Shown here one piece after another: positions 10,209 to 10,854 of a stretch of DNA of 64,000 nt (position 1 is its first letter; every line of letters starts with the position of its first letter). The DNA is from an uncultured Prevotellaceae bacterium (GTDB lineage Bacteria; Bacteroidota; Bacteroidia; Bacteroidales; Bacteroidaceae): assembly GCA_902781315.1 (NCBI GenBank), contig CACZIT010000008.1:4176-68175 (forward strand), read 5' to 3'. The translations under genes were made by a program, and so were the position numbers. The notes under the pieces were generated by a model. It was not told the origin of the DNA. It was given only the letters and a program-made list of their open reading frames with translations, and made no database searches.

Positions 10209-10854
10209 AGAAGTTCAAGGAGTTCTTTCTCCACTTCGTTCCGAAAGCGTCGCTTCGCGCCGAGCGAAAGACATTACTCTTGACGACATTATCAGCGCTG
10301 CCCGCGAGTTGCGCGACGAGGAGAACGCGCAGATTTCAGTCAAGGAACTCGACGACCTGATTGGTATTGCCCCATCCACTGTAGGGACGGGCTTCATTGC
10401 CCGTCGGCAAGAGGCGCCTCTGACCAGCACGCGCGGCTCTTCAACACGTCCCCGCTGGTGGGCTGCTGCCGCCTGCCTCCTCGGTTTCCTCGCTGGCTTC
10501 GGCGTGAAGAGCGCCCTACCCTCCGGCAATTCTCTCGCCGTAGTCCCCTCTGCCAAAAGCACACCCTCTGCAGTCCCCTCCTCTGGCAATCTCCTCTCTG
10601 CAGTACCCGCCCAATCCCCCGACACCATTCTCCAGCGCGAAGTCGTCCGCGACACCGTTTACCTGACGCGCGTCGTCCAGGTCAGTGCAGAGCCAAAGGC
10701 GATGGTTGCCCAAGCAGAGCAGAACCAAACGAAACCAAAACAAGCTAAACTAAACCAAGCGGAGCAAAAGGAACTTCCTGCCGAAACGCCCCCTGCCACA
10801 GGCTGCTCCATGCTCTGCGATGACATCCCCTATGCCTATCTCGCACACAACTGA
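10198..10854 (+). CDS. Single-TM putative anti-sigma partner containing repeat-derived inserts
   Basis: Overlaps the sigma stop; one TM (WWAAAACLLGFLAGFGV); in-frame repeats at 10222-10266 and 10381-10405. Confidence 0.7.
   Translation: MKDKEVQGVLSPLRSESVASRRAKDITLDDIISAARELRDEENAQISVKELDDLIGIAPSTVGTGFIARRQEAPLTSTRGSSTRPRWWAAAACLLGFLAGFGVKSALPSGNSLAVVPSAKSTPSAVPSSGNLLSAVPAQSPDTILQREVVRDTVYLTRVVQVSAEPKAMVAQAEQNQTKPKQAKLNQAEQKELPAETPPATGCSMLCDDIPYAYLAHN
10381..10405 (+). repeat. GTAG-type REP inside a CDS
   Basis: GTAG-G-GACGGGC-ttcatt-GCCCGTC, a perfect 7-bp stem. Confidence 0.65.

Follow-up and report, generated by a model that had tools for sequence, protein, structure and literature searches.

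Why should one short sequence of about 45 bp occur three times in a single stretch of bacterial DNA, each time apparently nested inside a different microsatellite? The question is raised by the 64,000-nt window analysed here, which covers C8:4176-68175 of G000, the rumen Prevotella-type genome of an uncultured Prevotellaceae bacterium (assembly GCA_902781315.1; 3.52 Mb in 60 contigs, 54% G+C). A first-pass annotation of the window, made from its letters alone, had seen in this element a tiny mobile unit that targets or generates tandem repeats. The evidence gathered since then indicates that the three stretches are probably copies of a discrete, non-coding and non-autonomous mobile DNA module, most often 42 nt long, which is among the smallest mobile DNA units seen in bacteria. 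Literature searches returned no published description of this module family.

A 42-nt module with exact ends

A degenerate 30-mer (GTTCTTTCTCCRCTTCGYTMCGAAAGCGTC) matches the window exactly at 10222-10251 (+), 15711-15740 (-) and 62009-62038 (+), referred to below as copies 1 to 3, as compared with no match in 100 shuffles of the window; the element is thus present three times, as annotated. Reading of the sites likewise bears out that 15711-15740 is inverted and 30/30 identical to copy 1, that, of the three differences between copies 1 and 3, two affect the partners of a single base pair (A..T versus G..C), that GCGAAGC lies on the minus strand of both these copies, and that the in-frame translation of copy 1 in the open reading frame (ORF) 10198-10854 is VLSPLRSESVASRRA. 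Two points of the initial description required revision. Copies 1 and 3 are indeed alike over 45 nt, but the unit proper is 42 nt (45 nt in copy 2); since the GTT in front is part of the target, its start is shifted by 3 nt (Table 1). Nesting in a microsatellite holds for copies 2 and 3, which lie in octamer and heptamer arrays, respectively, but not for copy 1, which adjoins a single GTTCAAGGA unit at a place where Tandem Repeats Finder (TRF) lists no array in G000. The orthologous site in RUG178, a metagenome-assembled genome (MAG) of another species, carries the same module and three GTTCAAGGA units, the flanking nonamers differing by multiples of 9 nt. Copy 2 has only its first 30 nt in common with copy 1 and then continues into another second hairpin and end (..TCCTTCGTCGCCGTGGTC); an identical example of its 45-mer is found at C3:144497.

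Further copies are numerous. A profile of the 30-mer (nhmmer, E<0.05) finds 145 modules in G000 and a covariance model 140, and three other rumen Prevotella-type genomes hold more than 100 each. The module is 38-48 nt long, with a mode of 42 (CTTTCTCC...CGAGCG), and on the strand used by the first-pass annotation (the annotated strand hereafter) it consists, after a (G)TT, of a first hairpin, CTTTC-TCC-xy-NNN-y'x'-TAC-GAAAG (hpC), a second one, CG-variable stem-loop-CG (hpB), and a tail AGCG, i.e., 5'-CTTTCTCC..GAAAG-CG..CG-AGCG-3' when written whole. In the subfamily associated with octamers the tail is TGGTC instead of AGCG. The two ends, CTTTC.. and ..CGAGCG, are not inverted repeats of each other. 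Most modules are singletons or stand head-to-tail within arrays, with few inverted pairs, and crude gene calls place 116 of the 145 between genes and 29 in ORFs. The commonest 42-mer, to which copy 3 belongs, is present eight times in the genome without any difference, in nonamer and heptamer arrays alike, which points to recent activity and argues against spread solely through homology of like arrays. The module is also a building block of larger mosaics resembling bacterial interspersed mosaic elements (BIMEs): a composite repeat made of the hairpin GTCCCGTAGGGAC, GAGATAGGG, a 38-nt GGCAAAGCC-type module and the hairpin GCCAGCCAATTCATTGGCTGG was observed at C1:210300-210420, C11:2520-2640, C49:15640-15760 and C44:7270-7390.

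Pairs of filled and empty sites, which the initial annotation had proposed to look for, exist among co-existing strains, within G000 and between species. For the strains, the comparison relies on bovine-gut metagenome contigs that are ~98-99% identical to G000. At C27:4589, a joint from 592 to 635 on locus L085 skips exactly 42 nt (CT..CG) with zero boundary ambiguity in three runs, and the site, CTCCCTTCCTTTT^AGGGAGGGG, contains no tandem repeat; a second exact 42-nt skip is seen at C27:15044 (L085, 11046 to 11089). Within G000, a repetitive extragenic palindromic (REP)-like palindrome beside a gene of the REP-associated tyrosine transposase (RAYT) type exists both empty, with AGCAGGGGTT joined directly to CCGTGCTCC.., and filled, as AGCAGGGGTT-CTTTCTCC..CGAGCG-CCGTGCTCC.., the insert being 44 nt long and free of duplication. 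Between species, the comparison was made with RUG178, which is syntenic with G000 and ~80-88% identical to it in the flanks. Among 20 syntenic module sites of RUG178, G000 is filled at ~5 and empty at ~14; in one clean case, the octamer array at window 4117-4224 is present in both genomes and holds a 48-nt module in RUG178 alone, while at other sites filled in RUG178 and empty in G000 the array is missing from G000 too.

The boundaries deduced from these pairs agree with those obtained from the family as a whole. The bases before the module are NTT in 136 of the 145 copies and GTT in 105, TT is present in the empty sites, and no target-site duplication accompanies the insertions. In addition, joining the left GTT to the bases past CGAGCG rebuilds a repeat unit in 29 of 89 copies, versus 0-10 when the boundary is moved by 1-3 nt. 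Taken as a whole, these comparisons define a discrete unit, running from CTTTC to CGAGCG, that lies after TT without duplication.

Hairpins, genomic context and distribution

The hairpin-forming strand is the complement of the annotated one; there the 30-mer reads GACG-CTTTC-GTA-GC-GAA-GC-GGA-GAAAG-AAC, and the module folds into two abutting mini-hairpins with GNA triloops: hpC, CTTTC-GTA-GC-GNA-GC-GGA-GAAAG, and hpB, CG-variable stem-GNA or T-rich loop-CG. When a model with two helices is applied to 90 distinct 30-mers, 96.2% of cells are paired (90.6% when shuffled) and double-sided changes occupy 37 cells against 9.4 expected; none of 500 shuffles did as well, and the covariation test proposed in the initial annotation was thus positive. 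In the inner stem the compensatory types are G-C/A-U (58 and 20) and C-G/U-A (68 and 9), and in the outer stem U-A to G-C (6). The hpC triloop is GNA in 103 of the 145 modules, N being A in 72, C in 18, T in 11 and G in 2. The commonest one-sided changes are G.T wobbles, which favour the GCGAAGC strand 18 to 4, and this strand also folds better with RNA and DNA parameters (p ~1e-11 to 1e-14). Although hpB comes in 44 sequence types, its closing stem reaches at least 4 bp in 21 of them, versus 4% of shuffles, and again it often displays a GNA triloop and G.A mismatches. In 97 of the 145 modules, the inner G-C stem has GTA in front of it, a motif that falls in the internal loop of hpC rather than at the palindrome's foot. 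As a model, the hairpin of minimum energy, CGCTT(T)CG/CGAAGCG, was rejected, since it pairs 80.5% of cells versus 81.1% in shuffled sequences and hence has no support from covariation.

Association with tandem repeats is clear at the genome scale: 29% of modules touch arrays of period 6-10, compared with 6.5% of random intergenic sites (4.4-fold), and 51% versus 20% touch arrays of period 6-60. About half of the modules nevertheless lie outside tandem repeats, some of them in other repeats. G000 has 675 arrays of period 6-10, of which ~45% can be written with units starting with GTT (GTTACTTT, GTTGAGA, GTTTAGA, GTTCAAA, GTTCAAGGA), and this fits the TT/GTT target. Of the initial proposal of a unit that targets or generates tandem repeats, the mobile unit stands and so does its targeting of arrays, the latter on the basis of this enrichment and of the in-phase splitting of units, but nothing points to generation of the repeats: many arrays, including orthologous ones, hold no module. 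Other short sequences vary as well: a 30-nt indel at L085:12505-12555 (C27 near 16504) and a 33-nt replacement at L087:13361-13395 (C2 near 148360) are polymorphic in all four metagenome runs and are probably other small repeat units that vary in copy number inside genes. Of note, contig depth at window 61988-62095 and 15638-15757 is 100-1000x that of flanking genes in bovine-gut metagenomes and metatranscriptomes (runs X1-X32), which means that these sequences are highly abundant throughout the rumen community.

Modules inside ORFs have a length of 39 or 42 nt in 16 of 18 cases, the annotated orientation prevails 20 to 9, and in this orientation all three frames are open. Pfam domains are recognised on both sides of in-frame modules in a GH115 protein, an alpha/beta hydrolase, a MenD-like thiamine pyrophosphate (TPP) enzyme and a SpoIIE/HATPase phosphatase; in the last of these, five nested modules interrupt the SpoIIE domain. 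In GH115, the module, which adds 14 residues, is the copy that is present or absent among strains. Copy 1 itself sits near the beginning of ORF 10198-10854, whose start overlaps the stop of the upstream ORF; judging from their sequences, the two are probably a sigma and an anti-sigma gene. A search for an empty ortholog of the anti-sigma-like gene gave no homolog at E<=1e-10 in 24 relatives.

The distribution of the module is patchy, with more than 100 copies in four rumen Prevotella-type genomes and none in most relatives. Among 24 genomes of the same genus examined with the covariance model, G005 has the sole other family (24 copies, also in phase inside heptamer arrays, of other unit types), and 22 others have 0-1. 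In the order, five of 400 genomes have 1-3 copies. An exact-core scan reached RUG178 (at least 150 copies), RUG12005 (115), RGIG7592 (103), one Bacteroidaceae MAG (26) and others with fewer. With regard to a viral vector, the exact core was found in 0 of 2.9 million viral contigs.

Table 1. Positions of modules, neighbouring arrays and related features (window coordinates unless a contig or locus is named)
Feature	Position	Strand	Remarks
Module copy 1, 42 nt, + strand CTTTCTCCACTTCGTTCCGAAAGCGTCGCTTCGCGCCGAGCG	10225..10266	hairpin-forming strand -	in frame in ORF 10198-10854, read (V)LSPLRSESVASRRA
One GTTCAAGGA nonamer, then GTT preceding copy 1 (target side)	10213..10224	+	nonamer split-unit rule GTT^CAAGGA
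Module copy 2, 45 nt, CGTGGTC-ended subfamily of octamer arrays	15693..15737	hairpin-forming strand +	intergenic, 24 nt before ATG 15761
Octamer array (ACAAAGTA / GTTACTTT type) adjoining copy 2	15639..15692		further unit 15741-15748; TRF
Module copy 3, 42 nt	62012..62053	-	hpC 62012-62034, hpB 62035-62049, tail AGCG 62050-62053
Heptamer array GGGAGTT/GAGAGTT, left part	61991..62011		ends in GTT before copy 3; split unit GTT^GAGA
Heptamer array GAGAGTT x4, right part	62054..62081		opens with GAGA, completing the split unit
Octamer array, empty site	4117..4224		orthologous array of RUG178 (L055, ~1525) holds a 48-nt module
Empty site relative to RUG178 (L001, ~6302)	63214..63374		neither heptamer array nor module between the same two genes
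HUH-DprA fusion gene	24156-25184	-	paralogs C2:101135-101992, C11:10798-11742, C15:7175-8014
Genes with in-frame modules (G000)	C27:3092-5731; C1:103127-104551; C1:144230-146041; C27:13589-16087		the two C27 genes are L085:1-1732 and L085:9590-12088
Further sites of GTAG-tagged REPs (G000)	C23:27150-27700; C49:18200-19300; C5:121300-122000
tRNA-Ser-linked unit loci	L003:6780-7130; L014; L016; L007; L015; L019; L028; L031; L038; L052; L079:1359-1850

Mode of spread and competing explanations

The module would move as single-stranded DNA by precise excision and insertion, with the hairpins as the cis signal. The enzyme would act in trans from elsewhere in the genome and could be of the HUH/Y1 type or of an unrecognised type, the process being most like HUH/Y1 peel-and-paste transposition. 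GTT-phased tandem repeats would then be favoured merely as plentiful targets, and the presence of the module in transcripts (3' untranslated regions, UTRs, and coding regions) would be a side effect, even if the hairpins may secondarily affect mRNA ends. A bolder version of this scheme, which is possible but doubtful, takes the 42-nt module to be in itself a whole transposable unit acting in cis, below the size of all bacterial mobile elements characterised to date and with the two GNA mini-hairpins as its sole signals. It would be moved as single-stranded DNA by a diverged HUH protein (e.g., HUH-DprA) or by enzymes of a class whose role in transposition has so far escaped notice; the enzyme would also service other hairpin and GTT-phased repeat families of these rumen Prevotella genomes, and the same chemistry would insert the module into the T-loop of the tRNA-Ser-derived units of other Bacteroidales described below.

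Several observations weigh against a mobile module, most of them from the search for its enzyme. Y1 transposases are encoded by 28 of 41 relatives, with or without modules; the three Y1 genes of G000 all lack flanking modules, and modules that would bracket such a gene are missing within 3 kb of each. IS91-type Y2 transposases, which target GTTC/CTTG, are absent from G000 and G005. The HUH-DprA family, with homologs in 13 of 19 genomes tested, is present in 7/7 module-bearing versus 5/11 module-free genomes, a weak association that is suggestive at most of a link to the modules. Four of five DUF559 nuclease genes lie within 3.5 kb of a module (p ~0.005), yet these genes also exist in module-free genomes and show no bracketing; this candidate was rejected. 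No circle or head-to-tail junction (CGAGCG joined to CTTTCYCC) is present in the assembly. The replication strand, moreover, relative to which IS200/IS605-type elements show a bias in orientation (lagging-strand template), is not readable from GC skew, given that the skew follows the coding strand and that the assembly is in 60 contigs; the coding strand of G000 is C-rich, and GC skew anticorrelates with gene strand. A general targeting of hairpin loops was rejected too, as rebuilt empty sites fold across the junction in 31% of cases versus 47% of random TT sites, and the known loop insertions (in a REP, a 37-bp palindrome and a T-loop) are anecdotes. Finally, the filled and empty alleles of strains can be read as insertion or excision alike. 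As to ORFs bracketed by module pairs, they are ordinary housekeeping genes, with no transposase among them. At C25:105200-106157, GTAG-tagged REPs (GTAGCAG..CTGCTA) that belong to a RAYT-like Y1 gene come after it, and some of them hold a module in their loop; contigs of G000 tend to end within such REP repeats.

The best surviving alternative is passive spread, in which a module nested in an array would be copied to like arrays, or lost from them, by homologous recombination, gene conversion or replication slippage. Besides the missing transposase partner, this explanation draws on the type of right end and hpB, which partly tracks the flanking repeat (CGTGGTCC in octamers, CGAGCGGAGA in heptamers, CGAGCGCAAGGA in nonamers), a correlation that fits recombination as well. 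It also draws on two of the four strain indels, which take in whole repeat units and have repeated boundaries: the skip at C27:6758 is 51 nt (module plus one nonamer, 9-nt repeated boundary) and that of copy 3 is 70 nt (module plus four heptamers, 12-nt repeated boundary), so that slippage could explain those two. Array-to-array recombination accounts for part of the pattern, but not for the exact 42-nt indel at the repeat-free site of C27:4589, which lacks any boundary homology. It is equally at odds with the filled and empty pair inside a REP-like palindrome, with the presence of one exact 42-mer in both heptamer and nonamer arrays, with the many copies outside tandem repeats, and with the same core in distant families, in a tRNA-derived context. 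As a full account, passive spread is therefore unlikely.

Copy number could instead reflect selection on a functional RNA, such as a REP-like stabiliser or processing site in 3' UTRs, a motif bound by a protein or part of a small RNA. The compensatory changes and the excess of G.U pairs on one strand would be expected of such an RNA, 50 of 83 tandem intergenic modules have this strand as the sense strand, and cDNA (RNA-seq) contigs extend from gene 62109-62696 into copy 3, meaning that the module is transcribed there as a 3' UTR. In other Bacteroidales, furthermore, the module forms an arm of a cloverleaf-like unit between tRNA-Ser and a terminator. However, modules are but weakly biased in how they are oriented to the flanking genes (50 to 33, p=0.08), the opposite orientation prevails in genes, and the module is gained and lost among near-identical strains and missing from most congeners. 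With Rfam 15, the window gives no match at gathering score and copy 3 none at E<=10, and 16 loci with the tRNA-linked form match tRNAs only. C-G-closed GNA triloops, moreover, are the signature of the GCGNAGC class, which forms an extraordinarily stable DNA mini-hairpin (PMC13037366). Selection on an RNA is thus a distinctly unlikely explanation for the family, and a role at the RNA level may exist as a secondary effect.

The tRNA-linked form raises a third alternative. MAGs of Muribaculaceae, Barnesiella, Coprobacter, Porphyromonadaceae and Paludibacteraceae carry an identical core in single or double copy; it lies on the strand of a tRNA-Ser gene, at 15-100 nt downstream from it. There it is part of a unit, repeated 1-3 times in tandem, that consists of an antisense copy of the tRNA 3' half, a short loop and a sense copy, GGTTCG^AATCC..CTCCGCA, identical to the neighbouring tRNA-Ser (UGA, GCU or GGA), with the module exactly at the T-loop position ^. 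On the other strand this insertion reads ATT^C, the same rule as in G000. Nine units fold into a cloverleaf-like four-way junction (RNAalifold) followed by a terminator. The module might accordingly be the fragment or cargo of a miniature integrative element targeting the T-loop of tRNA-Ser, with the Prevotella copies as secondary scatter. This would fit with its place at TTCG^AAT, inside a second 3' half of tRNA-Ser matching the neighbour tRNA, and with G121, in which three tandem units of the same scaffold carry an unrelated 56-nt cargo that also holds GCGAAGC. This origin is very unlikely: among 400 genomes of the order only ~3 contain the full unit, G000 has neither such a unit at its tRNA-Ser genes nor a master copy downstream of them, no integrase turned up beside the units, none having been looked for specifically, and the 100+ dispersed copies with exact 42-nt ends are left unexplained. 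The anatomy suggests rather that the T-loop copies are ordinary module insertions (same ends, TT^ rule); the units may be scars of miniature integrative elements, a tRNA-derived small RNA or a further target of the module.

Relation to known small repeats and significance

Cyanobacterial small dispersed repeats (SDRs), which Elhai and colleagues reportedly found in 2008 nested in heptameric short tandemly repeated repetitive (STRR) arrays, resemble the module: both are non-coding, dispersed, shorter than 50 nt, often nested in short tandem repeats and known from filled and empty sites, with a hairpin kept by compensatory changes and no known transposase. The likeness, already pointed out in the initial annotation, is one of analogy, drawn from descriptions and not from sequence, and the host of the module belongs to the Bacteroidota. 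In contrast to SDRs, the module has base-exact ends taken from strain polymorphism, a TT^ target, a pair of mini-hairpins with GNA triloops, copies lying in frame within genes and, in other families, a form linked to tRNA-Ser.

REP elements and REPINs (inverted REP doublets) are mobilised by RAYT (TnpA_REP) Y1 transposases (PMC3116915; PMC3337134; PMC3733652). Like them, the module is a short imperfect palindrome in 100+ copies, with a patchy, lineage-specific expansion and transcription in 3' UTRs, in a genome that encodes RAYT-like Y1 genes. In most copies a GTA-G motif stands 5' of the inner mini-stem, inside the internal loop of hpC, whereas the conserved GTAG (or CGTC) tag of REPs marks the 5' foot of the palindrome. 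Unlike REPs, whose cognate and usually single-copy RAYT gene has REPs of its own on its flanks, the module has no RAYT flanked by modules (the RAYT on C25 having its own GTAG REPs), consists mostly of singletons instead of inverted doublets, lies in ORFs in 20% of cases and inserts into tandem-repeat units. A survey from 2013 reported GTAG REPs in Proteobacteria, Cyanobacteria, Chloroflexi and the Planctomycetes-Verrucomicrobia-Chlamydiae (PVC) group, not in Bacteroidetes (PMC3733652). The wider background for HUH enzymes and single-stranded DNA is that of the "peel-and-paste" elements of the insertion sequence (IS) family IS200/IS605 (PMC6006769). The module resembles derivatives of these in its seamless presence or absence without target duplication, its short fixed sequence beside the insertion, its hairpins at or near both ends and its strand-asymmetric structure, and differs from them by its size (42 nt versus at least 100 nt), by a TT target instead of the 4-5 nt of the family and in that no full-length parent with the same ends and tnpA was found.

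Neither terminal inverted repeats nor a target-site duplication links the module to classical MITEs (miniature inverted-repeat transposable elements). Rickettsia palindromic elements (RPEs) are MITE-like repeats inserted in frame (reviewed in PMC10969869), and the module, with a modal length that is a multiple of 3, likewise lies in frame in protein genes and is translated as extra loops; whereas RPEs are 100-150 bp long and occur in Rickettsia, the module is three times smaller and mostly intergenic. Judging by its letters, it would also share with the d(GCGNAGC) mini-hairpin the C-G-closed GNA triloop, with a varying N, in both hairpins; work on that structure concerned oligonucleotides and priming sites of phages and plasmids (PMC13037366), as opposed to a dispersed genomic repeat known by sequence.

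Taken together, these features make the module a new form among very small, mobile repeats with hairpins, a class already known. The common view is that bacterial genomes tolerate few repeats; the known small mobile ones (REPINs, MITEs) are at least 100 nt long and tied to identifiable transposases. Here, a 42-nt unit, whose ends are fixed to the base by natural polymorphism, reaches more than 100 copies in several abundant rumen species while missing from their congeners, and it sits in frame in GH115, MenD and SpoIIE proteins, apparently without breaking these enzymes. In practical terms, modules and the tandem repeats that host them cause assemblies of short reads to break and lead to too many indels being called between strains in rumen metagenomes. 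The module provides a clean system for defining the minimal DNA needed for mobility and for finding an enzyme that recognises DNA mini-hairpins in vivo, as well as for following the remodelling of intergenic regions and protein loops in gut bacteria.

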